From an uncultured delta proteobacterium (lineage in GTDB: Bacteria > Desulfobacterota > Binatia > UBA9968), in NCBI GenBank assembly GCA_963847445.1, contig CAWJZV010000046.1, positions 352,001 through 416,000 on the forward strand: a stretch of 64,000 bases of DNA, given 5' to 3'. The notes beneath the pieces were generated by a model, which had not been told where the DNA came from, did not search any database, and saw nothing but the letters and a program-made list of their open reading frames with translations. Below are positions 33,152 through 49,699 of the stretch, one piece after another. The position numbers were made by a program, and so were the translations under genes. Position 1 is the stretch's first letter, and each line of letters begins with the position of its first letter.

Positions 33152-33410
33152 TCAAGCACTGGGTCTAAGATTCACAATTTAGGATGGGAAATGCGGTTTT
33201 TGGACCGACTGCGCCAAGTGTAGACCCGTATCCTTGTTATCACTGATGTTAAGCACCCCTAGGTGGAGCTTATTAGTGCGTCGATCGCGGATTTTTGAGT
33301 ATTAAAATGGGCGATCCCGAGTTAACCGAAGCGGCATCGAGGTCGGCCGACGCGACAAAGCCTCTGCCGACTGAAGAAATTGCGCCAAAGCGCGAGGAAA
33401 ACTGACAAAA

Positions 33411-34277
33411 ATGTCAAATCCACTGGAGAACCTGCAGCCGGAGCAGGCAGTGGTCCCAGATAGCGCTTTTCGTCCGACGGAGATCTTCGCCGAGGTTGCA
33501 AAAGATCAGATCGACCAGTCGACTCCCGCCTGTTTTGAGAAGATCGTGCGGATGTACCCGAATCGGCTAGCGCTCAAGGTGGGCGACCATGCGCTTACTT
33601 GCCACTGACCAAAGGTAAATTGGACCGAACCGCATTGCCTCGAGCCGATCACCAACGACCTAACTTGGAGCAAATCTACGTTCCGCCTCGGGATGAGTTT
33701 GAAATAGAGCTAGCTAGGATATGGACTGAGGTTTTAGGCATTGACACGGTCGGTCTCCATGATAATTTCTTCGATCTCGGCGGCCATTCCCTGGCAGCAT
33801 CACGGGTGATCTGCGGGTCATTCAAACATTTCAGCTGGAACTGCCGGTTAAAGCGCTCTTCGATGCGCCGACGGTGGCCGAGATGGCGAAAGTTATTTTG
33901 CAACACCAAGCCGAAAAGGCGGGCGAAAAGAAACTGGCGTCGATCCGACGACGGAAGTTGAGAGTAAACTAGCTGCGATTTGGGAGGATGTGTTATCACT
34001 TGATCGAGTCGGCGTTAACGACAACTTTTTCGATCTAGGCGGTCATTCGCTGGCAGCGACTCGGGTGGTTTCTCAGGTCATTAAGCAATTCCAATTAGTG
34101 CTGCCGCTTCTCTCATTGTTCCAGTCGCCCACGGTTGCCGAGATGGCGACGGTAGTTACCGAGCATCAGGGAAACCTGTTAGGTAAGGAAGAGCTTGAGC
34201 GCTTGTTGGGCGAATTAGAGTCGATGTCGGACGAGGAAGCGCAACAGTTGGTGGCCAAGGAAACGGTTAAGGGATGA
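33411..34277 (+). pseudogene. Internally deleted A-domain remnant followed by two PCP domains and a C-terminal docking helix
   Basis: A-domain N-terminus (FEKIVRMYP...ALT) joined to A10 LPLTKGKLDR; two FFDLGGHSL motifs. Confidence 0.65.
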
Positions 34278-34373: not shown

Positions 34374-36172
34374 ATGAATGACCGAAAAGCCGACACGATC
34401 TATGAACTGCTCAAAGCACGGGCTGAGCACGCTCCTGAAGCTGTAGCTATTCTCGCGCCTGGTCGGAGCGCTCTTACTTACCTCGGACTGCTCGTCAGGT
34501 CGAGCGAGGTTGCGCGATGCGTTGCATGGCAGAGGCGTGCAACATAGCGACTCGGTCGCCATCGTACTGCCCAACGGTCCCGAGATGGCGGTGACTTTTG
34601 TTGGGGTTGCCGCTAACGCCATATGTGCACCGCTGAATCCAGCCTACAGCCGTCGCGAGTTTGAGTTCTATCTCTCCGATCTCAAGCCAAAAGCGTTGAT
34701 TGTGCAATCGGGCATGAACTCCGCGGCCGTTGCCGTCGCTGAAGAGCGCGCGATTGCAATCATTGAGCTATCGTCAAAACCTGGGGCAGCCGATGGTGTC
34801 CTCGATTTGGGCGATAATCAACAGCGGGCGCCTTCTACTTTTAGTTTGCCCCAAGCAAACGATATTGCGCTGATTCTCCATACCTCAGGGACAACTTCCC
34901 GACCCAAGATGGTTCCGTTGACCCATGCCAATCTCATAGCCTCAGCCGGGAACATTGCCGCCACTTTGCGGCTGAGCGAAGCGGATCGCTGCCTCAACGT
35001 CATGCCGCTGTTTCACATCCACGGGCTGGTGGGCGCGCTGCTTTCATCGGTGATGGCGGGTGCCAGCGTGGTCTGCGCTTCGGGGTTCGATGAGCGAGCA
35101 GTTCTTCTCATGGCTCGAGGCTTTTCGTCCGACCTGGTACACGGCGGTGCCGACGATTCATCACGCTGTTGTCGATTACGCGCAAGCGGAGCCGATGGCG
35201 TTCAGCAATCACTCGCTCAGATTCATCCGATCTTCGTCTGCCGCGCTACCTGCACGGGTGATGCAGGGCTTAGAGGAATCGTTCCAGGTTCCTGTGATTG
35301 AGTCCTATGGCATGACCGAGGCGGCGCATCAGATGGCCAGCAGCCCGTTGCCGCCCGGTCAGCGCAAGGCCGGTTCGGTTGGACCGGCGGCGGGACCGGA
35401 AGTGTCGATTATGGATGAGACCGGCAATTTATTAACCGGCGGTGAAATTGGCGAAGTCGTGATTCGCGGTGCCAATGTCATGTCCGGCTATGGCAACAGC
35501 GAAGCCAACGCCGAAGCGTTTACACGGGGTTGGTTTAGGACGGGGGACCAGGGCTATCTCGACAAAGACGGTTATCTGTTCATTAGCGGGCGTCTCAAGG
35601 AAATCATTAACCGTGGAGGAGAAAAGATCTCGCCACGGGAAGTCGACGACGCGCTGTTGGCGCATTTCGCCGTCGCACAAGCGGTGACGTTTGGCGTGCC
35701 TCATCCGACTCTTGGCGAGGAAGTCGCGGCGGCGGTGGTACTGCGCCCGCAAGCGCGGGCGAGTGTGAATGAACTTAGACAATTTGTCGCGACCACACTG
35801 GCCGACTTCAAAGTGCCACGACAGATCGTTTTCGTCGACGCCATCCCACTGGGTGCCACCGGTAAAATTGCCCGCAACGGTTTGTCTGAGCAACTTGCCG
35901 ACCAGCTTAAATCCGAAAGCGGGGCGCCGCAGACTGATCTCCAACATGCGGTGGCGACTATTTTCGCCGAAGTTGTCGGTGTGGAACAAGTGGGCGCGAC
36001 CGATGACTTCTTCGATCTCGGCGGCGATTCGTTGCGCGCATTTCAAGTGATTAGCCGCATCCGAGCCAGGTTCGACGTCAATCTTTCCATTGCGACTGTC
36101 TTCGCCAAATCGACCGTCGCGGAGTTGGCTGATGAAATCGTCCGGGCACTGGGGGACACGGACAGCGGCTAG
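34374..36172 (+). CDS. Oxalate--CoA-ligase (AAE3/Pcs60)-like adenylation domain fused to a PCP (frameshifts)
   Basis: LHTSGTTSRPK, PLFHIHGL, TWYTAVPTIH, LRFIRSSSA, YGMTEAAHQM; C-terminal FFDLGGDSL. Confidence 0.8.
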
Positions 36173-36207
36173 ACCAAACCGCAGCATTTGCTCGGCGGGG
36201 AATAATC

Positions 36208-37904
36208 ATGATTGAAGAACCGTCGAAGAAATTCGAAGCGCACGGCGAACGGAACGCCAAGCTGACGAAAACCGATGGCCATTCGCTGGTGGCGCAGAGT
36301 TTGAAAAGTCTTGGCGTCACGCATGTATACTGCATCGCGGGCACGCCGATCCGGGAAACGTTCGCCAAATGCGCTACGCTCGGCATTCGTCCCATCGGTG
36401 TGCGCCACCAACAGTCCGGCGTGTTGATGGCGCTCGCCCAGAACTACGTAACCGGAGGACTCCCGGCAGTGGCGCTGTTCTCCGCCGGACCGGCGATCAC
36501 TAACGCTGTGACCGGTATTCTTGTCGCCAAGGATAACTGTTGGCCATTGGTGGTCTTGGGCGGCAGACGGCCATTTGAACATGCGCGGCATGGGTTCTTT
36601 TCAAGAACTGGACGCGGTGACGATTTTTCAGTCGATCACCAAGTGGTCGGCGGTAGTCGAAAAAACTTCGGAGATTCCAGGTTATTTGGCACGGGCGTTC
36701 CAAATCGCCCGACAGTGGACGACCCGGCCCTGTGTATCTCGATTTGCCTGAGGATGTTCTATGGCGCAACCCAAATGTCGTCCGCTGCCGTCCAATCGCC
36801 CCGGCGATCTTGCCACAACTCGCGACGACAGCGAGATTGAGCAGGCGGCCGATCTATTACTTGTCCGCACAGCGGCCAGCGCTGATCATCGGTAAAGGAG
36901 TTCGTTGGTCCGCGCCCTATGCCGAAATGCGACGGCTCGTTGAGGAGTTTGATATCCCGTTCATCACGTCGCCCATGGGGCGGGGCTTTTTGCCAGACGA
37001 TCATCCGCTATGTGCGAACCATGCCGCGCGGTACCCTGCAGAGAAGGGCGGACGTGATTTTATTGTTGGGGGCCCGGCTTGATTGGACCTTTCGTTTCGG
37101 CAGACAATTTGCCCGCGATGCGAAATTGATCCAGATCGATATTCATGAGCCAGAGATTGGCACCAATCGCGCCGGCGACGGTGGGGATCGTTGGGGACGT
37201 AAAGTTGGTTCTACAAAAAATCCTCGATTGTATGACGCGCAAGGTAAGTACGGCGCCGCGAGCGAGCTTGGCGCCGTGGCGCGCGCATGCTGGAGGCCGA
37301 ACGGAGATTCGAGAGCTCCAAGCTGGACAGCCAAATGCGCAGCGCCACGCTGCCCATGTCGCCTCAGCGGATGTTTAAGGAGATCAAAGACTTTCTACCC
37401 CGCGATGCGATTTGTATTCTTGACGGCAACATTTCCATGGCCGCCGGTCAGCGCGTCTTGCCCGCTTACTTGCCGGCTTCGCGTTTTACCGCCGGAACCA
37501 ACGGCTGTATGGGCGTCGGCGTCCCGTACGCCGTCGGCGCTAAAATCGCTCAGCCTGACCGGCTGGTTATTGCCGTCTGCGGTGACATGGGTTTTGCTTT
37601 GAGCGCCATGGATATGGAAACCGCGGTGCGGCACAAAGTTCCTATCCTGGTCGTTGTGGCTAACAACGACGGGGGAACTGGCGCGATCACCCAGAGCACT
37701 TTTTTCCCGAACTCTGAAGAACGGATCACCATGTTCCAACCCGACATTCACTATGACAATATCATGCTCGCCTTCGGCGGTCATGGGGAATACGTGGACC
37801 GTCCGGAGCAATTAAGACCGGCGTTGGAACGATCTGTTGCGTCAGGTAAAGCGGCCTGCATCAATGTCAAGATCGATCCGTTCGCCGCTTATCCGCAGGA
37901 TTAA
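36208..37904 (+). CDS. ThDP-dependent enzyme of the oxalyl-CoA decarboxylase / 2-hydroxyacyl-CoA lyase family (frameshifts)
   Basis: TDGHSLVA, GMGSFQELD, LIIGKG, GARLDW, AGTNGCMGVG and GDMGF...NN. Confidence 0.8.
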
Positions 37905-37929
37905 GGACGCTGTCGCGGAACAATTAGTC

Positions 37930-40900
37930 ATGCAAAAGCAATTCATTCCCAAAAGAAAAGATCGCCAATCCGCGCCGCTATCTTTTGCCCAACAGCGACT
38001 GTGGTTTTTGGATCAACTCGAGCCCAACAGCCCGCGTTACAATGTCTCACGCGCGCTCAGGCTCCGAGGCGAACTAAACCTTACAAGTATTGCAAGAAGC
38101 GCTCGACGCCATTGTGAGTCGGCATGAAACTCTACGCAGCAACTTTCGCGAGGTCGATGGCTTGCCCATACTCATAATCAGGCCGTCCGTGAAGTCTCCC
38201 GTGACATTCGTTGATCTGAGCGATCAACCGATAGATTGCCGCGAGGACACGCTGATCGCTACATTAAATGAGACTAGTTCTGCGGCCGTATAATCTGTCG
38301 ACGGATGCCATGCTGCGGGCGAGTTTGGTGCGGGTAACCCCACACGATCACGTCCTGCTCTTAGTCTTGCCGCACATTACCTCGGACGGCTGGTCCATGG
38401 TCATATTATGCCAGGAACTGATGGCTCTCTACGATTCTTTGTTACACGGTCAGCCTTGCCCATTACCCGATCTACCGATCCAATACGCCGATTACGCAGT
38501 TTGGCAACGCGAATGGTTACAGGGCGAGTTGCTGGACAGACAACTCTCTTACTGGAGTCGAACACCTCGCGGAGATTTCCGATCTCAATTTACCCACTGA
38601 CCGCAGCCGACCGGCACTGCCAAGCTGCCGCAACGGGGCGCAATCCGCGAAGTATCCGCAGCATCTTACCAATCAACTCAATGACCTAGCGCGGACCGAA
38701 CGAGCAACGCTGTTCATCACGTTGCTCGCGGCGTTCAATGCGCTGCTTTACAGGTACACCGGTCAAAATGACATTGCCGTAGGTTGCCCGATCGCGAATC
38801 GTCGATATGTGGAACTCGAGGGTTTGATAGGTTTCTTTGCAAATACGCTGGTCTTCAGAAACAGTCTGTCCGGCAATCCAACTTTTCGCGAGCTAATGGC
38901 GCGGGTACGTGAAGTCGCTCTTGGGGCCTACGAACATCAAGATGTTCCATTTGAAAAATTGGTGGACGAGCTGCAACCGGATCGTGACCTCAGCCGTAAC
39001 CCACTTTTTCAGGTCACCTTTCAGCTAAGAAACTATCCTCGCCAGCTCGTTCAGCCAACAGAAATAACAGTCGAGCCGTTCGAACTGCGTTCAGGAATAG
39101 CTAAGTTCGATTTGTCTTTGGCAATGACCGACGAAGAGGATGGCCTAAAGGCGGAGATCGAATATAATCCGGATCTTTTTGAGTCAGCGACAATCACCCG
39201 AATGCTGGGTCACTTTCGGACATTGCTTGCAGGAATAGTAGCGAATCCTGATCAACCGATCAGCGAATTACCCTTACTCACCGAGGCGGAAAAACATCAA
39301 CTCTTGGTCGAGTGGAACGACACCAAGACCGACTACCCCCAAGACAAGTGCATCCATCAATTGTTCGAAGCTCAGGTCGAGAAAACTCCAGACGCCATCG
39401 CAGTGGTCTTTGCAGAGCGGCAGTTGACCTATCGAGAACTGAATCGCCGCGCCAACCAACTCGCTCATTTTTTACGAAAACTCGGCGTCGGCCCGGAGAC
39501 TCTTGTGGCTCTCTGTGTCGAACGGTCCCTCGAAATGGTTGTCGGACTACTCGCGATCCTCAAAGCCGGTGGCGCCTATGTGCCGATGGACCCCGACTAT
39601 CCAAGCGACCGGCTGGAGTTCATGCTGCGCGACACTCAAGCGGCGGTCTTGTTGACCCAGGAGCGGCTGTATCGCCGGCTGCCGGTGTACCCGGGGCAAC
39701 GAGTTTGTTTCGACCAGGATCGGGAAACGGTCAGTCGGGAAAGCGGCGAGAATCTTGGTCAGAATACAGCACCCAAAGTCTTGCTTACGTGATTTACACC
39801 TCCGGCTCAACCGGCAAACCTAAGGGAGTAATGATCGAACATCGTAGCGCCGTCGCATTCCTTAGGTGGGCGCACGATGTATTCACGGACGAAGATTTGG
39901 CCGGTGTATTGGCGTCGACATCGATCTGTTTCGATCTGTCCGTTTTCGAATTGTTTGCGCCGCTGACATCCGGTGGCCGAGTAATCCTGCTTGAAAATGC
40001 CCTTGCGTTGGGTCAATTGGATCACGCTGTGGAGCCGACACTGATTAACACGGTGCCTTCGGTCATGGCGGAATTGTTGCGGCTCAGAAAATTGCCACCA
40101 TCGATTCGTACGGTGAACTTGGCGGGCGAACCGCTAAAGGCCAGCTTGGTCGAGGCGATCTTCCAGCATACTTCCGCGTTGCAGGTCTATGATCTCTACG
40201 GCCCGTCGGAAACGACGACGTACTCGACCTATGCACGCAGAACTGTCGGCGGGATTCAAACGATTGGGCGGCCGATAACGAACACCCAGATCTACATTCT
40301 CGATTCTTACCTCAACGCCGTACCGGTAGGCGTATCAGGAGAGCTTTACATCGGCGGCGCAGGTTTGGCGCGCGGATATCTCAATCGGCCAGACCTGACC
40401 GCGGAGAAATTTGTTCCGCATCCATTCAGCGATAAAGCGGGAGCTAGGCTCTATCGGACTGGAGATCGCGCGCGCTATTTGCCCGATGGCAGCATCGAGT
40501 ATCTGGGCCGCATGGACAACCAGGTAAAGATCCGCGGTTATCGGATCGAGTTAGGGGAGATCGAAGTCGGTGCTCGGTCAACATCCGTCGGTGAGAGAAT
40601 CCGTCATACTCGCTCGCGAAGATATTCCCGGAGACCGCCGGCTGGTGGGATATGTGGTAGCGAGACCGGAAGCGTCGTTCGACGCTGCAGAAGTGAGAAA
40701 GTATCTCAAGCAGAAACTACCTGAGCACATGATTCCGTCGGCCTTGGTGCTATTGGATGAATTGCCGTTGACTCCGAATGGCAAGGTAGACCGCAGAGGA
40801 TTGCCGGCGACGGGTCAAAATCGAGCCGAAAGCGACAAAACATTCACCGCCCCTCGGACTCCGGTCGAAGAAGTCCTCGCAAGCGACTGGTCAGAAGTGC

Positions 40901-41169
40901 TGAAAGTCGACAAGGTCGGCACTCACGACAACTTCTTTGATCTCGGTGGCAACTCGCTGTTAGCTGTGCAAATCGTATCGCGAATCCGTAGTGCTTTTTC
41001 TATCGAGTTTCCGTTGCGCAGCTTATTTGAAATACCCACCATTGCCGAGATCGCGGCAATGATTGAGCAGAACCAAGCGAAGCGGGCAAGCGACCCGGAG
41101 CTAGCGCAAATATTGCGCGAAGTGGAGGCGATGACGGAGGAAGAGGCGCAGAAAATAGTCGCAAAGTAG
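37930..41169 (+). CDS. NRPS module C-A(Ala predicted)-PCP (frameshifts)
   Basis: [30 protein letters not shown]; hand-extracted pocket DLFNNALTY; DLGGNSL. Confidence 0.88.
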
Positions 41170-41197
41170 CGGGATTGGCGACGAAGGAGAGACGGAC

Positions 41198-43246
41198 ATG
41201 GATGATTCGCCCATACATAGCTTCAATCTTCCACCGGAGCAGCAAAGGATCCGCGACAAATGCCTGCATCCATCGGGGACATTTGTCGAGTTTCCGATGG
41301 CAGACGTCGAGAGCTCGATCCCAGCGCGTTTCGAGAAGGTCGTGCGACAGTATCCGAATTACACCGCGATAAAAGCCGGTGACGAGGTGGTCACCTATGC
41401 AGAGCTTAACGCCTTGGCCAATCGAGTGGCTCGAGTCATCGCCGAGCGCGCGGGAAACAACGCGGTGCCTATCGCTGTGCTTATAGACAAAGGCATAAAG
41501 CAAATCGCCGCGATGATGGGTGTCCTAAAAGCTGGGCGTTCCTTTATGCTGCTTGACGGATCCCTGCCCAAAACACGGCTCGAAGTCATGCTAGAAGATT
41601 GCTCGCCGGAACTGACAGTTACCGACGGACAAAGCAACTCGTTGGCCGATGAACTTATGCCGGCAGACCAGCCGGTAATTAAGTTCGACTCAATCGATCC
41701 CAACGTCCCAAGCGAGAATCCCGACATCAAGATTGCCCCAGACGCTCTCGCATACGTTGTTCATACTTCGGGCTCCACGGGACGGCCTAAGGGGGTCATC
41801 TATAATCACAACACGTTGTTGCATCACGTCATGTTGCGCACGAATGCGGACGGATTTTGTCCACAGGATCGAATTTCACATTTTTCATCCGGCACGGCAA
41901 ATGCCATTACCAACCCTTTTTTCGCATTGTTGAATGGAGCCGCGCTCTTGCCGTTCGACGTTAAGAAAGAGGGAATTCGTCGCCTCAGCACTTGGCTCTC
42001 GCAGGAGAAAGTCACGGTCTGTCTGATTGCAGCTCCCTTATTTCGGAACCTGTGCGAAGATTTGACGGCACCGGACGGATTCCCCGATATGCGATTGCTC
42101 AGGTTGAGAAGTGAAACGGTTTGCAAGTCCGACGTCGATCTCTACAAACGCTATTTCTCCGAATACAGCATCTTAGCTAACGGCTTATCTTCCAGCGAAA
42201 CGCACATGTTGACTGAGTATTATATCGACTCCGCTACGAAACTTCCGGGTGCAGACGTTCCGGTTGGTTATGCCGTTCAAGAGAAGGAGATCTTACTGTT
42301 GAACGAACAAGGCGAATCGGTCGGTTACAATGAAATCGGTGAGATCGTCGTGCGCAGCAAGCATCTATCGCCAGGTTACTGGCGCAACCCGGAATTAACC
42401 TCCGCTAAGTTCAAGAACGACCCGGCACGCCCCGAGGAATGCATCTATCATACTGGGGACCTTGGCCTCATGCTTCCCGATGGCTGCCTGATTCACAAAG
42501 GCCGCAAGGATTTCCGCATCAAGATTCGTGGCTACGGAGTGGAGATTGGCGAAGTTGAACAAGCTCTGCGCGAGCAGTCGGAGATTCAAGACACTGTGGT
42601 GGTGGCGAAAGAGACCGAATCGGGGGAAGTTCGATTGGTTGCTTATCTCACATCGCCAGTTCAGCCCAGACCCGACATCCGACAAGTACGCACTATGCTG
42701 AAGACGAAGTTACCCGACTATATGATTCCATCGTCTTTTGTGCTCCTCGATGCGTTGCCGTTAACAGCGAATGGAAAATTAGACCGCCGGGCGCTGCCTG
42801 ATCCAGGAAACACTCGCCCCGACCTAAGTAACTCGTATGCACCACCGTCAACCACGACGCAAGCGCAGCTCATATCGATATGGTCAGAGGTGTTGTCACT
42901 GGATCAAATTGGCGTCCACGATAGTTTCTTCGACCTAGGCGGCCATTCGCTGGCCGCGTTTCGGGTGGTCTCTCGGGTGATCCAAACATTTGCACTGGAG
43001 CTGCCCATCAAGGCTCTATTCGACGCACCGACGGTCGCCGAGATGGCGGCTATCATCGTGCAGAACCAAGCCAAGCGGGCAAGCGACGAAGATCTAGCGC
43101 AGATGCTGCGTGAGGTAGAAGCGATGACCGAGGATGAAGCGCGGAAACAGATTGCCGATGAATACCTGCGCAAAACCGACGGAAGTTTGAAATGGTCGAT
43201 TCTTTCTGTCGTGGGGTACGAAACGGCCATGGTATCGGCCCCGTAA
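41198..43246 (+). CDS. Stand-alone A-PCP didomain lacking the amino-binding Asp
   Basis: HTSGSTGRPKG; SSGTANA replaces FDxS; YHTGDLG, NGKLDR and DLGGHSL. Confidence 0.85.
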   Translation: MDDSPIHSFNLPPEQQRIRDKCLHPSGTFVEFPMADVESSIPARFEKVVRQYPNYTAIKAGDEVVTYAELNALANRVARVIAERAGNNAVPIAVLIDKGIKQIAAMMGVLKAGRSFMLLDGSLPKTRLEVMLEDCSPELTVTDGQSNSLADELMPADQPVIKFDSIDPNVPSENPDIKIAPDALAYVVHTSGSTGRPKGVIYNHNTLLHHVMLRTNADGFCPQDRISHFSSGTANAITNPFFALLNGAALLPFDVKKEGIRRLSTWLSQEKVTVCLIAAPLFRNLCEDLTAPDGFPDMRLLRLRSETVCKSDVDLYKRYFSEYSILANGLSSSETHMLTEYYIDSATKLPGADVPVGYAVQEKEILLLNEQGESVGYNEIGEIVVRSKHLSPGYWRNPELTSAKFKNDPARPEECIYHTGDLGLMLPDGCLIHKGRKDFRIKIRGYGVEIGEVEQALREQSEIQDTVVVAKETESGEVRLVAYLTSPVQPRPDIRQVRTMLKTKLPDYMIPSSFVLLDALPLTANGKLDRRALPDPGNTRPDLSNSYAPPSTTTQAQLISIWSEVLSLDQIGVHDSFFDLGGHSLAAFRVVSRVIQTFALELPIKALFDAPTVAEMAAIIVQNQAKRASDEDLAQMLREVEAMTEDEARKQIADEYLRKTDGSLKWSILSVVGYETAMVSAP

Positions 43247-43590
43247 TGGCGCGGCTATCTCAACGAGCAATCCACCGGAAATCATAAGAGAAAATAGCGG
43301 ATTCTGTGGTGGCCTCGTCCGGCGGTGCGTATGGACGCTCTACGGTAAAGCCTAGTGACAAGCTGGACCGCAGCAGGTTATCATCTGTTTGTGGCCGCTG
43401 ATATTTCGGTCGTGCACGCCGTGATGAATCGTTTTCCGAGACTAGGTTGATTGGTAATGTCATAGTGCGGTCTATATTGAAGCTTGGTCAGTGAGTCTAG
43501 GATGGATAAATTTGTGGCCGATGTCGAAACGATGTTTAGCGCGATTGCTGACTCGATCTACAAGGGGCAACTACCCAAGTTGGAGTCTTG

Positions 43591-46500
43591 ATGGAGAGCG
43601 AAAAGTTAATCGAGCGTCTTGCGACTCTTTCTCCCGCGAAGCGGGCCTTACTTGAGTTAAAACTGCAGCAAGGCCGCGGTCGCACGGCTGCGCAGATGAC
43701 CATTCCACGGCGAGCCCAGCGGGAGCTTGGCGCCGCTGTCGTTCGCGCAGCAGCGGCTGTGGGTGCTCGACCAGCTGGAACCTGAAAGTTTCGCTTACAA
43801 TGAGCGATCGGCGGTCCGTTTGGACGGGCCGCTAGACATCGGCGCGCTGCGTAGTGCGTTGAGTGCTGATAGTCGAGCGCCATGAAGTGCTGCGCACGAC
43901 CTACGGCCTAACCAATGGCGGTGAGCCGGTACAGCAAATCGGCGCAGCCGTGGGCATCGATTTGCCGGTCATTGACATCAGTGAAGTTGCTGAGAGTCAA
44001 CGCGATGATGCGGTGCAAAGGATAGCCGCGGAGCTGAGAGAGCGTTCTTTCGATCTGCGGAACGATTTGCCGCTACGGCTGTGCGCTGGTCAGACTCGGT
44101 GCCAATTCCCATGTATTGGTCGAGGTGAAACATCATATCGCTTCCGATGGTTGGTCGAGCGGTATCTTTCTCCCGCGAGCTCGCCGCTATTTACACTGCG
44201 TTGAGCCAAGGCCGGCCTAACCCGCTTGGCGAATTGCCGGTTCAGTACGCCGATTATTCGTTGTGGCAGCGAGAATGGCTCCAGGGCGAAGTATTGGAAA
44301 AACAGCTCGCCTACTGGAAAGAGCAACTGAAAGATATTCCGGTTCTTGAGTTGGCGATGGACCGGCCGCGCGGCGGTTCGCTGAACCGCGCCGGCGCGAA
44401 ACAAAGTGTGACCTTGTCAAAGTCATTGGCCGATCGGTTAAAGGCGCTGAGCCGTCAAGAGGGCGCCACGTTGTTCATGACGTTACTCACGGCGTTCCAA
44501 GTCTTGCTGCATCGCTACACGGGACAAGACGACATCGCTGTGGGCTCACCGATTGCTGGACGGACACGGTCGGAGACGGAAGGACTGATCGGATTTTTCG
44601 TCAACACCTTGGTGCTGCGAAGCAAGCTGTCCGGCAACCCGACGTTTAAAGAACTATTGGCACAGGTACGGGAAACCGCGTTGCAAGCGTACGAGCACCA
44701 AGACGTGCCCTTCGAGAAGTTGGTCGAAGAGCTCAGGCCCGAGCGCGATCAAAATCACACGCCATTTTTTCAAGTCATGTTCGCGTTGCAAAATATTCCG
44801 CGGGGGAATCTTGAATTGGCGGGACTCCAGGCGACTCCCGTCGAGGTCGCTTCTTCGGGGGCGAAGTTCGATATCTTCGCGGCATTTATCGAACGCGAAG
44901 GCGAGATGATGCTTGCGCGTAGAGTACAGCACGGAGCTATTTGCAGCGGCGTGGATCGAGCGTATGTTGGGCCATTTTCAGACATTGCTTGAAGGCATTG
45001 TCGCCAAACCAGAACGATCGATCGACACCTACCCGATCCTTTCCGAAGCCGAGCAGCAACGGTTGCTGATCGATTGGAACGATACCCAGCGAGACTCTCC
45101 CGCATGGCCGGTGCGTTCACGAATTATTCGAAGCACGCGTTAATCAAAATCCCGAAGCCGTTGCGCTGGTTTTTGAAAATGAGAGCTGGAGCTACCGAAA
45201 ACTAAACTGCCGGGCAAATCAACTGGCGCGCTATCTGCGCGGACTCGGCGTGGGGCGGGACACTCTGGTGGCGCTTTGTGTCGATCGATCCATGGAAATG
45301 GTTGTCGCTTTGCTTGCCATTCTCAAGGCCGGTGGCGCCTACGTGCCAATGGACCCTGAGTATCCCAAAGACCGTCTCGAGTTTATGCTGCGCGACACCC
45401 AGGCACCGGTACTATTGACCCAGAAGCGGATAAGTCAAATCCTGCCAGATTACCCGGGACAATGCGTTTGTCTAGACGGGGATCGTGAGAGGATTGCTCG
45501 CGAAAGCGATGAGAATTTTGCTCACGAGGCGACGGCTGACAGCCTCGCTTATGTAATCTACACTTCCGGCTCGACCGGAACGCCCAAGGGTGTAATGATT
45601 CGGCATGGCAGCGTCTGCAACTTCTTGGCCTCCATGGCTGCCGAACCCGGATTGTGTAGTAAGGATACGCTGCTTGCCGTTACGACGCTGTCATTCGATA
45701 TTGCGGGATTAGAGATTTATTTGCCGCTCTCAGTAGGCGCTCGAATTGTTTTGGCGAGCCGCGATGTCGCCGTCGATGGATTTCGGTTAGCAGCGCAATT
45801 ATCAGATTGTGGTGCGACGATGATGCAAGCCACGCCCTTTACATGGCGCATGCTCTTGGCGAGCGGTTGGCAGGGTAGTCGAGAATTGAAGATTCTCTGT
45901 GGTGGTGAAGCGCTTTCCGAGGATCTAGCCAGCCAGCTCGCGCCTCGCTGTGCCTCGCTGTGGAACATGTATGGTCCCACGGAAACCACTATCTGGTCGT
46001 CGATCCAAAGAGTACCAGAGAATATTGGCAAGATTTCTTTGGGTCGGCCGATTGCCAACACGCAATATTATGTTCTTGATGGGCATTTGAATCCCGTTCC
46101 GGTCGGGGTTGCGGGCGAGCTCCACATTGGGGGTGCAGGTTTAGCGCGAGGATATCTGAACCGGCCGGAACTCAGTATCCGAAAAATTTATTTCGAATCC
46201 CTTTAGCAACAATCCGAGGCAGCGGTTGTACAAGACCGGAGATCGGGTGCGATACTTACCTGGGGGTGAGATCGAGTTTCTCGGTCGAATCGACGATCAG
46301 GTCAAGATTCGCGGTTATCGCATCGAACTCGGTGAGATCGAGGCGATGCTCGGTCAACATGCCGGAATCCAACAAGCAGTCGTGCTCGCACGAGAAGACA
46401 TTCCGGGAGACCGACGGCTGGTGGCCTATGCTGTTGCTACTCCAGGCTTCACCCCTTCGGCAAGCGACCTGCGCACCTTTCTGCTGCAGGAGCTCCCCGA

Positions 46501-47792
46501 GTACATGGTGCCTTCGATTTTCGTGTCATTGGAATCATTGCCACTGACTGCCAATGGTAAGCTTGATCGTAAGGCGCTACCAGCTCCAGACCAAACTAGG
46601 TCCCGAACTGAGCGAAACCATTACCCCGCCTCGGACCCCTGTCGAGGAGATACTCGCAAGTATCTGGTCTGAAGTTCTCAAACTCGACAAAGTCGGCATC
46701 CATGACAACTTCTTTGATCTGGGCGGGCACTCACTGCTAGCCATCCAGGTCATCTCACGATTGCGACGAAGTTCAGGATGGATTTGCCTGTGCGCACTTT
46801 GTTTGAAGCGCCGACAATCGCGCAATTGGCGGCCCGTCTTGAACATCAAACCAAGCCGGTGGTCAGTTCAAACGGGAAGGCTACTTATTCCCATCTCATT
46901 GAGCTTCGTAGCGGACCGAACCAAAAGCCGATATTCTGCTTTCCCTATCGCTGCGGTGTCCAGGGCGAATACACACACTTCCTGCGGCTCGCGAAGTACA
47001 TGGAGGAATATTCATTCTATGGGCTCCAGGCAAAAGCCGCCGACAGCCATACGCCGCCGCACGCATCGGTTGAAGAATTGGCATCAAACTATGTCCGCGA
47101 GATAGAAGATTTTCACCCCAACGGTCCTTACTACTTAATCGGGGACTGCGCAGGCGCGCCAGAAGCCTATGAAACGGCCCGGCAATTGTCGATGCGAGGC
47201 GAGAAGGTGGGATTGCTCGTGCTCTTGGATGCCAAGGGCCCATATATGCCGGGCAGGTATTGGCGCCTGGGACCCTATTCGATAAAGGATTTGGATCTCC
47301 TACGCAGCCGGTTACTGAGTTCACGATTCTGGATGTGGTGCAGGAATTTGGATGCAGCGTCAAGTTTCCATTGGCAGGAGAGCAGGAAGCTTCCGAATGG
47401 AGAACGTTGGCGTTATTTAGGTCGGAAAGTTTTTGGCGGGCTAAAAACTCAAATAAGGGGCGTCGCAGAAGTACACCTCGGAGCCGTCCCAGGAATCTGA
47501 AGAGGTGTTCAGCGCAAGTGAGGAAGAGCTTCTGCAACACGTCGCTCGCGCTCGAAGTCAGTATCGGAGCAACTGGCCGAGCGACTATCCTGGCCGGCTT
47601 GCTGTTATCATCAATGAACAATGGTACGGGTTCGATCGCACGTTTGGCTGGGCAGAAATGGCTGCCGGAGGTGTCGAGACCTATGCTATTCGTGGGGACC
47701 ATATTTCTTACATGCTTGAGAATGTGCCGATGGTCGCCGACCGGTTACGCGCATGTCTAGAAAAGGCCCGTAAATCCCACCGGAGAGTTTAG
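43591..47792 (+). CDS. Terminal NRPS module C-A(Gly predicted)-PCP-TE (frameshifts)
   Basis: [10 protein letters not shown]-terminus, HHIASDGWS, pocket [29 protein letters not shown]...GDH. Confidence 0.88.
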
Positions 47793-48079: not shown

Positions 48080-48168
48080 GGAGGGGTGGGAGAGCGGTTT
48101 AATCCACCGGTCTTGAAAACCGGCGCCCACTTCGTGGGCCGCGAGTTCAAATCTCGCCCCCTCCGCCA
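48080..48168 (+). tRNA. tRNA-Ser(UGA)
   Basis: Acceptor stem GGAGGGG/CCCCTCC, anticodon arm ccggt-cTTGAaa-accgg, long variable arm, encoded CCA. Confidence 0.95.
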
Positions 48169-48297
48169 TCACTTCAAGCTATCGCGATGCGTTGAGGACG
48201 GAGAATCGCCGATCGCATATCGTTAAACCTTCGACGCTTGCGCATCCGATATTGCTCTGTATAGCTATCAGCATCAGCTTTGGAGAGGATGGATTCC

Positions 48298-49699
48298 ATG
48301 GCTAATTCTGCTGCACCGACTTTACAGTTCCTGGGCGCCGCCGGCGGTGTCACCGGATCGAAGTTTCTATTCTCAAACAATTCGGACCAAGTCTTAATCG
48401 ATTGCGGTTTGTTCCAGGGACTGAAAGAGCTGCGCCTGAGAAATTGGGCGCCGTTGCCCATCGATCTCGCCCAGTTGCGCTCTGTCGTTCTCACCCATGC
48501 CCATATCGATCACTCGGGCTATCTGCCGCGAATCGTTGCCAAAGGTTTTCGCGGACCGGTTTATGCGACACCGGGAACTTGCGATCTGTTGGGTGTGATG
48601 TTGCCGGACGCGGCGCACTTGCAGGAAGAGGAGGCGCGCTACGCCAATCGCAAGGGCTACTCGAAGCATTCTCCTGCGTTGCCGCTGTACACTTGGAAGA
48701 TGCCGAGGCGGCTTTGAAGTTACTGCGGCCGGTGCGCGTCGGTGAAAAAGTCGAAGTAGCCAAAGGCGTTGTGCTCGACTTCGGCCGGGTCGGTCATATT
48801 CTCGGCGCTGGTTCGGCGCGCTTTAGCTTTGAGATCAACGGCCAAAAGAAAACCTTGGTCGACTCGGGTGATCTGGGTCGCTACGACCGGCCGATCTTGA
48901 AAGATCCCGAGCCGGGCGGCAGCGCGGATTGGCTGATGATCGAGTCGACTTACGGCAATCGCATTCATCCAAAGGATTCCGAAGCGGCGTTGCGCGCGTT
49001 GATTAAGGAGACCGCGGAACAACGGCGTTGTCTAATCATCCCTGCGTTCGCCATCGGCCGGACCCAAGACTTGGTCTATACGATTCGCAAGATGGAGGAT
49101 GAAGGGGAGATCCCGGCGATTCCGGTGTACGTCGATAGCCCGATGGGCATCGAAGCGACCGAGATTTATTCGCGCCACACCGATGAGCATGATTTTGCAA
49201 TGGCGCAGCTGAGCAGTCACGAGCGCAACCCGTTGCGCTCGCGCCATATGATCGTGGCGAAGAGCCCGGAGCAATCGAAAGCGATCAACGATGCCAAGGG
49301 CGCGTTGATTATCATTTCGGCGAGCGGCATGGCGACGGGTGGCCGGGTGCTGCACCATTTGAAGCATCGATTGCCCAATCCGGATACGACGGTCTTGCTC
49401 GCCGGCTACCAGGCCGAGGGCACCCGCGGTCGTCGCTTCAAGACGGCGCCAAGGAAATCAAAATGCTCGGTGAAGTGATTCCGGTGCGCGCCAAGGTGAG
49501 AGTCCTCGACGGCTTTTCCGCCCACGCGGATCAAGGCGAGATCCTCCGCTGGCTCGCCACGTTTACCAAGCCGCCGAAGATGACCTATGTCGTCCATGGT
49601 GAGAAAGCCGGCGCGACGGCACTGGCTGAGGCGATTCGCGAACGGCTCAAGTGGAACGTCGAGATCGCCAGGTTTCAGCAGAAAGGTGAACTGGCGTAG
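48298..49699 (+). CDS. MBL-fold beta-CASP ribonuclease (frameshifts)
   Basis: [38 protein letters not shown] and VHGE. Confidence 0.9.

Follow-up and report, generated by a model that had tools for sequence, protein, structure and literature searches.

In a 64,000-nucleotide stretch of the genome of an uncultured delta proteobacterium of the Binatia lineage UBA9968 (assembly GCA_963847445.1, contig CAWJZV010000046.1, positions 352,001 to 416,000; hereafter the window), we found a five-gene nonribosomal peptide synthetase (NRPS) island on the plus strand at positions 34374-47792. It is predicted to make a small peptide, to take oxalate as the starter and to rework it on a carrier protein by means of a thiamin diphosphate (ThDP) enzyme with a conserved Gln in place of the cofactor-activating Glu (Gln-type). 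We put the probability of this reading, which is built on sequence comparisons, at about 0.5. Pfam searches (E-values 1e-8 to 1e-91) recovered five units, namely an adenylation domain fused to a peptidyl carrier protein (A-PCP), the ThDP enzyme, a condensation-adenylation-carrier module (C-A-PCP), a second A-PCP, and a C-A-PCP module ending in a thioesterase (C-A-PCP-TE). This is the order and strand that had been proposed in a sequence-only reading of the same DNA, and the C, A, PCP and TE domains follow one another in module order on one strand, as in an NRPS. Position 34374 corresponds to residue 1 of an intact 598-aa ortholog, P0002, and position 47792 to the stop of the last TE frame.

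The first gene (34374..36172, plus strand; AMP-binding, AMP-binding_C and PP-binding at 34447-36172) encodes an oxalate-type A domain, abbreviated OxA herein, fused to a PCP. AMP-binding scored 142 + 89 bits and AMP-binding_C 62 bits, and the ANL adenylate-forming fold and core motifs are present. When compared with solved structures, the C-terminal half gave 243-266 bits with the oxalyl-CoA synthetases 6qjz, 5ie0 and 8aff versus 134 with a malonyl-CoA ligase, and the N-terminal half gave 122-131 versus 77. P0002, which is 94% identical to the window over residues 241-598 (its last 358), scored 384-410 bits against oxalyl-CoA synthetases and 217-226 against malonyl-CoA synthetases. The oxalate pocket of Arabidopsis thaliana AAE3 (AtAAE3) has been described as V215, H216, C288, S289, A313, M314, H319 and K500, with S289 and H319 reported as conserved only among oxalyl-CoA synthetases (PMC8905533). 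In the P0002 alignment H216, S289, M314, H319 and K500 are identical to AtAAE3, and the remaining three positions carry the conservative changes V215I, C288S and A313G. The earlier identification of an oxalate-CoA-ligase-like A domain is thus upheld by the best solved matches and by the retained Ser289 and His319, and the five motifs on which it drew (HTSGTTSRPK, PLFHIHGL, WYTAVPTIH, RFIRSSSA and MTEAAHQ) were all present in the translations. RFIRSSSA and YGMTEAAHQ, found in both the window and P0002, align with RSCSAS and YAMTEATH of AtAAE3. A PP-binding domain bearing the GGDSL serine is fused at the C-terminus, which sets the protein apart from the free-standing, CoA-thioesterifying ligases of EC 6.2.1.8; such a domain is present in 117 of the 120 best homologs. 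Adenylation of oxalate and its loading as oxalyl-S-PCP are therefore predicted with good support.

Bacterial homologs of this A domain occur with and without the carrier, and the motifs FHIHG, RSSS[AS] and YGMTEA[AS]H are common to both kinds. Scored by the presence of a PCP, 31 were fused and 49 unfused, a classification that missed at least L004, L014, L056 and L072 (matches to residues 562-598). A PanE/ApbA-family reductase (Pfam) lay immediately 3' of the unfused homologs in 29 of the 46 loci with room for one, a class that holds a few fused genes, and elsewhere in the locus in 8; no such reductase was found by tblastn beside the fused homologs (0/30 loci). A figure of 43 of 49 unfused loci with a PanE-like neighbour, obtained by clustering of open reading frames (ORFs), was dropped, as the cluster was contaminated by alternative-frame ORFs lying over the OxA gene. 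The unfused ligase with its PanE-type reductase is presumably the oxalyl-CoA synthetase/oxalyl-CoA reductase pair of Methylorubrum, and probably represents the synthetase/reductase route from oxalate to glyoxylate. The AMP-forming oxalyl-CoA synthetase of M. extorquens has a Km for oxalate of 9 uM (PMC7154664). Unfused oxalate-type ligases are commonly annotated merely as acyl-CoA or fatty-acid ligases, the top NCBIfam match being the FadD7 family.

The three altered pocket residues out of eight could mean that some other small acid (glyoxylate, glycolate, malonate, oxamate or pyruvate, for instance) has become the substrate of the fused A domain, and that the ThDP enzyme acts on that acyl-S-PCP. 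We consider such a drift improbable, as the same three substitutions are found in unfused bacterial homologs adjoining PanE-type reductases and Ser289 and His319 are retained. In addition, a PEP_mutase/isocitrate-lyase (ICL)-family lyase, which would be an oxalate supplier if it is an oxaloacetate hydrolase, adjoins the cassette in L004 (Pfam), with look-alikes of 45-47% identity in L022, L125 and L165. Genes of this family stand beside OxA-PCP or Gln-type ThDP genes at L004:8460-9341, L004:4909-5736, L022:3502-4332, L125:3063-3836 and L165:19-806; in the window itself tblastn found no look-alike.

The second gene (36208..37904, plus strand; TPP_enzyme_N/M/C at 36136-37904) encodes a member of the superfamily of oxalyl-CoA decarboxylase (OXC) and 2-hydroxyacyl-CoA lyase (HACL), as judged by Pfam, by NCBIfam (OXC, HACL and PRK05858), by matches to solved structures and by ortholog alignment. 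The intact ortholog from L013 scored highest with the HACL/S structures 8vzc and 6xn8 (326 bits), followed by the OXCs of E. coli (271 bits) and O. formigenes (234 bits) and an actinobacterial HACL (202 bits); the Gln-type protein gave 146 bits with glyoxylate carboligase. The three-domain ThDP fold is present with its GD...NN cofactor/Mg motif (GDMGF...NNDG), and since this motif is invariant among aligned members that are 50-84% identical, cofactor binding is probably kept.

In M. extorquens OXC a Tyr-Glu pair (Tyr133/Glu134), a later Tyr (Tyr497) and a lid Ser (Ser568) have been described, the latter two positioning the water that protonates the carbanion, and human HACL has Phe-Gln at the place of the pair (PMC7154664). 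At these positions the window protein reads SFQE (Phe-Gln) versus DYEE (Tyr-Glu) in E. coli K-12 OXC and NNDGGT versus NNGGIY, thus lacking the Tyr, and its tail extends 7 residues beyond the conserved Asp-Pro (DPFAAYPQD) versus 21 in E. coli OXC, so that the region of the lid Ser is absent. By these residues the protein is HACL-like, not OXC-like. It departs from the HACLs in two respects. At the position of the cofactor-activating Glu (standard position 51; E50/E54 in HACLs) it has Gln, reading GVRHQQ versus GFRHEQ in E. coli OXC, and the Arg, Lys, Gln and Trp residues with which the C-terminal covering peptide of HACL/S contacts acyl-CoA (PMC11271303) have no counterpart in its short tail, which is without basic residue or Trp. 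The family-level exception to the conserved Glu that is described in PMC3534367 is glyoxylate carboligase, in which standard position 51 is Val. The proposal of an OXC/HACL-like ThDP enzyme in the sequence-only reading therefore stood as regards the superfamily, and is narrowed here to a HACL-like protein without the canonical cofactor Glu.

The Gln-type proteins are tightly linked to the oxalate cassette. A ThDP-seeded metagenome scan yielded 80 loci, which were pooled with 80 OxA-seeded genome loci, and 80 ThDP N-domains were scored by alignment; this replaced a pattern-based count in which 99 of 120 ThDP homologs showed the Gln motif and the other 21 escaped the pattern. Among the 80 ThDP matches in the 160 loci, 57 were Gln-type, five of them from the OxA-seeded set, and 23 were Glu-type. 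An OxA-type A domain with PCP lay just upstream of the Gln-type gene in 31 of the 32 loci with at least 1900 nt of room, the single miss (L167) having a PCP, and a C domain lay just downstream in 25 of the 28 loci with at least 1500 nt of room (misses L107, L147 and L160), versus 0/12 and 0/15 for the Glu-type relatives; as the loci are interrelated and partly redundant (L112 and L113 appear to be the same), the figures should be read as counts, not as independent trials. Among longer proteins five matches were found, four of which, P0241-P0244 (1142-1217 aa), join A, PCP and ThDP domains in a single polypeptide, carry the oxalate-type motifs and all have Gln at the Glu column; the C-terminus of P0244 appears frameshifted. 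The fifth, P0245, was not counted as a fusion, having the reverse domain order and other motifs. The strict synteny, these fusions and the loss of the CoA-contacting lid residues together suggest that the ThDP enzyme works on a carrier-bound thioester.

Within the 80 genome loci, tblastn placed a C domain directly after the fused OxA-PCP in 16. The ThDP gene lies between the two in L011, L013, L022 and L072, and in L003 it stands at the contig end; in 7 or 8 further cases (L007 added) the OxA-PCP leads directly into a TE. Record titles name Gemmatimonadota, Cyanobacteria, Verrucomicrobiota, Acidobacteriota, Binatia, Nitrospirota, Planctomycetota and Chloroflexota, among other phyla. The co-occurrence with NRPS modules in other genomes, on which the sequence-only reading had staked its case, was thus found across many phyla and, in four proteins, as outright fusion, and the oxalate-type A-PCP would appear to be a widespread NRPS starter unit. 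The smallest cassettes consist of A-PCP, ThDP enzyme and C-A-PCP-TE (L094 and L110) and are without an aldehyde-supplying gene.

The modules that follow would extend the starter by two residues. The C-A-PCP module (37927..41169, plus strand; Condensation, AMP-binding and PP-binding at 37816-41169) and the C-A-PCP-TE module (43588..47792, plus strand; Condensation, AMP-binding, PP-binding and Thioesterase at 43863-47500) were delimited by Pfam, the former with NCBIfam AA-adenyl-dom and an intact ortholog on the metagenome contig L090, the latter with frame alignment and the TE motif. AA-adenyl-dom gave 315 and 338 bits on these modules against a cut-off of 317, the pieces scored being fragments. 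Their specificity codes, read by hand from the core motifs, are DLFSNALTYK and DILFLGMIWK, which we take to be Ala-like and Gly-like, respectively, in agreement with the Ala/Gly units predicted before. The TE (46718-47500) has a Cys nucleophile (GDCAG, near 47140) in place of the Ser of GxSxG; TE matches across related loci, including TEs fused directly to oxalate-type A-PCPs, divide into 16 with Cys and 10 with Ser out of 26. The core of the module-2 A domain (39660-40565) is only about 40% identical to the L090 ortholog (L090:3338-6619), versus 68-98% elsewhere, which suggests a recent swap of the A domain or subdomain and hence a different amino acid there.

Between the two modules lies a stand-alone A-PCP, here called A*-PCP (41198..43246, plus strand; AMP-binding and PP-binding at 41159-43246; ORF, Pfam and L090 ortholog). 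In an alignment with the module-4 A domain it has Asn opposite the Asp of FDxx, and as this Asp binds the alpha-amino group, the A*-PCP probably loads a non-amino acid, a point that goes beyond the sequence-only reading. Many cassettes have an A*-PCP, which often lies upstream and in some cases takes the form A*-PCP-TE.

We propose the following route. The oxalyl-CoA-synthetase-type enzyme would use its own fused carrier as thiol acceptor instead of CoA and produce oxalyl-S-PCP, as its pocket residues and homology suggest. The Gln-type enzyme, assigned to the next step by synteny and the fusions, would add ThDP to the thioester carbonyl and, with loss of CO2, form a ThDP-bound hydroxymethyl-thioester carbanion, an intermediate common to OXC and HACL (PMC7154664). 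Protonation of the carbanion would release formyl-S-PCP and lead to an N-formyl peptide; alternatively, capture of an aldehyde would give a 2-hydroxyacyl-S-PCP. The first C domain would then pass the starter to the Ala-like residue and the C-A-PCP-TE module would add the Gly-like residue, with release by the Cys thioesterase, while the extra A*-PCP would load its non-amino acid. Within this route, protonation to formyl-S-PCP appears to be the likeliest fate, at roughly even odds, because no aldehyde source is present in the minimal cassettes and release of formyl thioesters is part of the natural HACL reaction. Aldehyde capture to a 2-hydroxyacyl-S-PCP is possible under the same premise and the less probable of the two.

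The lack of a conserved aldehyde-supplying gene in L094 and L110 also counts against a decarboxylating carboligase that would make a glycolyl, lactyl or similar 2-hydroxyacyl starter, and with it an N-(2-hydroxyacyl) peptide. The acceptor Km of HACL/S enzymes is high, and HACL lyases naturally release formyl-CoA, so that protonation is not blocked where the OXC residues are missing. Such a carboligase, which we judge unlikely, would nonetheless fit the closer relationship to the HACL/S 'synthases' than to either OXC. It would also fit the absence of the OXC protonation-water Tyr and lid Ser, given that the Y497A mutation of OXC raises the carboligation-to-decarboxylation ratio about 400-fold (PMC7154664), and the precedent of glyoxylate carboligase, itself a decarboxylating carboligase and the one family for which PMC3534367 names a loss of the cofactor Glu. 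A cascade of oxalyl-CoA synthetase (OXS), OXC and a thioesterase has been reported to convert oxalate and aldehydes to 2-hydroxy acids (PMC7154664). A bolder version of our proposal, which we put forward with considerable doubt, would make the Gln-type protein a natural carrier-dependent 'formyl-anion' ligase. Here CO2 loss from oxalyl-S-PCP would power the formation of a C-C bond to a carbonyl acceptor, maybe delivered on the A*-PCP, oxalate would serve secondary metabolism as a one-carbon nucleophile donor, the starter would be a 2-hydroxyacyl unit assembled on the carrier, and the conserved Glu-to-Gln change would be an adaptation that suppresses protonation of the carbanion.

Several observations weigh against oxalate priming followed by ThDP-dependent reworking. 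The pocket differs from that of AtAAE3 at three positions, no assays of members of the fused clade were found in the literature searched (full text, with subscription journals largely uncovered), and the linkage rests on counts from interrelated loci. The four loaded carriers are more than two C domains can serve, and the A*-PCP has no assigned place in the route. The 16 loci without a ThDP gene between A-PCP and C domain indicate that the ThDP step is optional. The Gln should slow ThDP activation, and since a Glu-to-Gln exchange costs other ThDP enzymes most of their activity, the protein could be slow or non-catalytic. Human HACL, to whose class the ThDP protein is closest in its residues, barely decarboxylates oxalyl-CoA (kcat <1 per min; PMC7154664).

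If the ThDP protein were catalytically dead or structural, acting as a docking or gatekeeping partner, the peptide would simply be N-oxalylated, as in the clusters that have no ThDP gene. Both these 16 loci and the Gln in all 57 NRPS-linked members would be explained in this way, but members that share 50-84% identity agree throughout in the ThDP/Mg motif and in many residues of the PP and PYR domains, the Gln is itself conserved and not drifting, and glyoxylate carboligase functions without the cofactor Glu (PMC3534367). We therefore regard a dead protein as very improbable and retain an active Gln-type enzyme as the preferred reading.

The window copy of the cluster is broken in the assembly, and other copies would be better suited for cloning. 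The sequence-only reading had hinted at indels; when intact orthologs were aligned across the window frames, we counted 22 frame switches in 13.4 kb, and most of the genes are not open. The switches number 2 in the A-PCP (near 34521 and 35093, P0002 aligning over three frames), 5 in the ThDP gene, 5 in the C-A-PCP, to which the 1093-aa intact L090 ortholog aligns in frames 1-2-3-1-3-1, and 10 in the C-A-PCP-TE (4 in the C domain and 6 in A-PCP-TE). The 682-aa A*-PCP has none and is the only intact gene of the cluster. On contig L090 the same gene order is found in open frames of 529 (5'-cut), 562, 1093 and 663 aa, with 80-98% identity to the window over most pieces, and with this intact syntenic ortholog the family is sufficient for an interpretation of the biology, whether the window's lesions are artefact or decay.

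We consider it somewhat more likely than not that the frame switches are mostly assembly errors. In support of an artefact, the reading frames of rpoB (1373 aa) and rpoC (1390 aa) are uninterrupted in the same assembly. Contigs of related strains are one base shorter or longer than the window at 36573, 37024, 38084, 38272, 38564, 39767, 44082 and 44166, which are frame-switch sites; these contigs come from four public runs in at most three studies, and the runs share at most 0.29 of sampled words, which marks them as related strains and not the source. At 10 of the 12 indels among those listed, beyond which there were 57 further indel rows, the extra base is in the window.

A substantial chance, short of an even one, must be given to the alternative that the cluster is a decaying pseudogene island, silent in this genome whatever its relatives make. 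For decay speaks the concentration of 22 switches in 13.4 kb, when the 8.1 kb of rpoB and rpoC have none and the neighbouring genes gatA, gatB, serS and those of the ABC transporter are likewise free of them. Two further points favour decay in this strain and tell against an artefact. Of the A*-PCP genes upstream only stubs are left, which resemble true deletions, and no long homopolymers are obvious at the switch sites. Runs of at least 5 are equally dense in the cluster (2.39/kb) and the window (2.38/kb). Natural bacterial indels lean towards deletion, however, which is at odds with the excess of extra bases in the window. The 2-kb A*-PCP gene, moreover, is undamaged, with 91% identity to its L090 ortholog, and a second NRPS region on contig C17 of the same genome is broken likewise.

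In that region (86.5-97.3 kb, minus strand) the NRPS genes are cut into overlapping ORFs of 245-541 aa, and elsewhere on contig C17 rpoB, rpoC and a 1428-aa ORF are open. Fragmentation in the assembly thus seems to be concentrated in NRPS genes; the cluster region did not stand out in ORF coverage, whether taken by contig or by 5-kb bin. Among the relatives compared no copy exceeded about 85% nucleotide identity, so the frames cannot be polished from relatives.

The stubs, remnants of one or two genes that the sequence-only reading had not noted, occupy 33375-34277 on the plus strand (translations, PP-binding and tblastn). An A-domain N-terminus is joined there straight to an A10/PCP end, and the next element is another PCP, whose acidic tail is docking-like. 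PP-binding matched at 33539-33961 and 33852-34277, and the window's A*-PCP matched by tblastn at 33599-33853, 33814-33951 and 33945-34271 with 50-67% identity. In the intact relatives L094, L141 and L103 this place is taken by one complete A*-PCP gene or by two, and the stubs may represent either a real deletion of 1.4-3 kb or an assembly collapse.

In the literature searched we found no description of an oxalate-loading A-PCP or of an OXC/HACL enzyme in an NRPS, nor any characterised assembly line primed in this way, in keeping with what the sequence-only reading had stated. To that extent an NRPS with this priming cassette is undescribed, the new points being the conserved Glu-to-Gln change, the residues that separate OXC from HACL, the quantified linkage, the tri-domain fusions and the intact L090 cluster. 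With the oxalyl-CoA synthetases (A. thaliana AAE3, 5IE0-5IE3; Lathyrus LsOCS, 6QJZ; yeast Pcs60, 8AFF; M. extorquens OXS) the first A domain shares the ANL core motifs, Ser289 and His319, but its acceptor would be the fused PCP and not CoA, and its product would feed a C domain and not oxalate catabolism. OXC has the same three-domain ThDP fold, superfamily and proposed acyl group, an oxalyl thioester, whereas the substrate proposed here is tethered to a carrier. HACL/S (8VZA-8VZK, 6XN8) shares the Phe-Gln pair with the window protein and gives the highest sequence scores in the structural database; it differs in the cofactor Glu, which is Gln in the window, and in its C-terminal Arg, Lys, Gln and Trp acyl-CoA contacts (PMC11271303). 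Glyoxylate carboligase is likewise without the cofactor Glu and couples decarboxylation to C-C bond formation, but has Val, not Gln, at the position and acts on free glyoxylate (PMC3534367).

The engineered cascade of OXS, OXC(Y497A) and YciA follows the same logic of an oxalate activator and then a carboligation-prone OXC/HACL enzyme (PMC7154664), whereas the window system is natural, carrier-bound instead of CoA-based, and has no known aldehyde partner. Lactacystin priming by the formyltransferase LctF and the acyltransferase domain AT1 of LctA likewise yields a formyl starter, on an acyl carrier protein; there the formyl group is described as coming from 10-formyl-tetrahydrofolate via formyl-CoA and the acyltransferase (PMC11730586), whereas here it would come from oxalate via the A domain and ThDP-dependent decarboxylation. 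The grass pea beta-ODAP pathway offers a likeness in that activated oxalate N-oxalylates an amino compound, but as described in PMC8905533 it is a plant route with oxalyl-CoA and a separate transfer step, and involves no NRPS, carrier protein or ThDP enzyme.

If the proposed priming is correct, oxalate would have to be added to the fatty, aryl and keto acids that start NRPS assembly lines, its loading domain would be one taken over from primary oxalate metabolism, and this kind of priming would extend over many phyla of mostly uncultured bacteria. It would also mean that an OXC/HACL-family enzyme works on a carrier-protein thioester, and that glyoxylate carboligase has a counterpart, a second natural subfamily of ThDP enzymes that does without the 'universal' cofactor Glu, whose role could then be tested in a new setting. 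Engineering of OXC/HACL enzymes towards one-carbon assimilation is under way (PMC7154664, PMC8411744, PMC11271303), and a natural, carrier-tethered, oxalate-driven version would readily supply new catalysts as well as N-formyl, N-oxalyl or N-(2-hydroxyacyl) peptides.

The cluster is flanked by housekeeping genes, among them gatB, an amidase, a beta-CASP protein and an ABC uptake system; gatC, RNase HII and serS were read from the translations by eye, without a family search. The G+C content is 53-57% in the cluster and mostly 57-61% in the flanks, and a tRNA-Ser (tga) gene identified by ARAGORN (48080..48168, plus strand) starts 288 bases past the final stop of the cluster. With these flanks, its lower G+C and the adjoining tRNA-Ser the cluster looks like an island, which may be tRNA-associated. 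On the 3' side of the tRNA, the beta-CASP gene appears as two overlapping plus-strand ORFs (48280-48717 and 48402-49478), maybe reflecting another frame switch, outside the NRPS genes.

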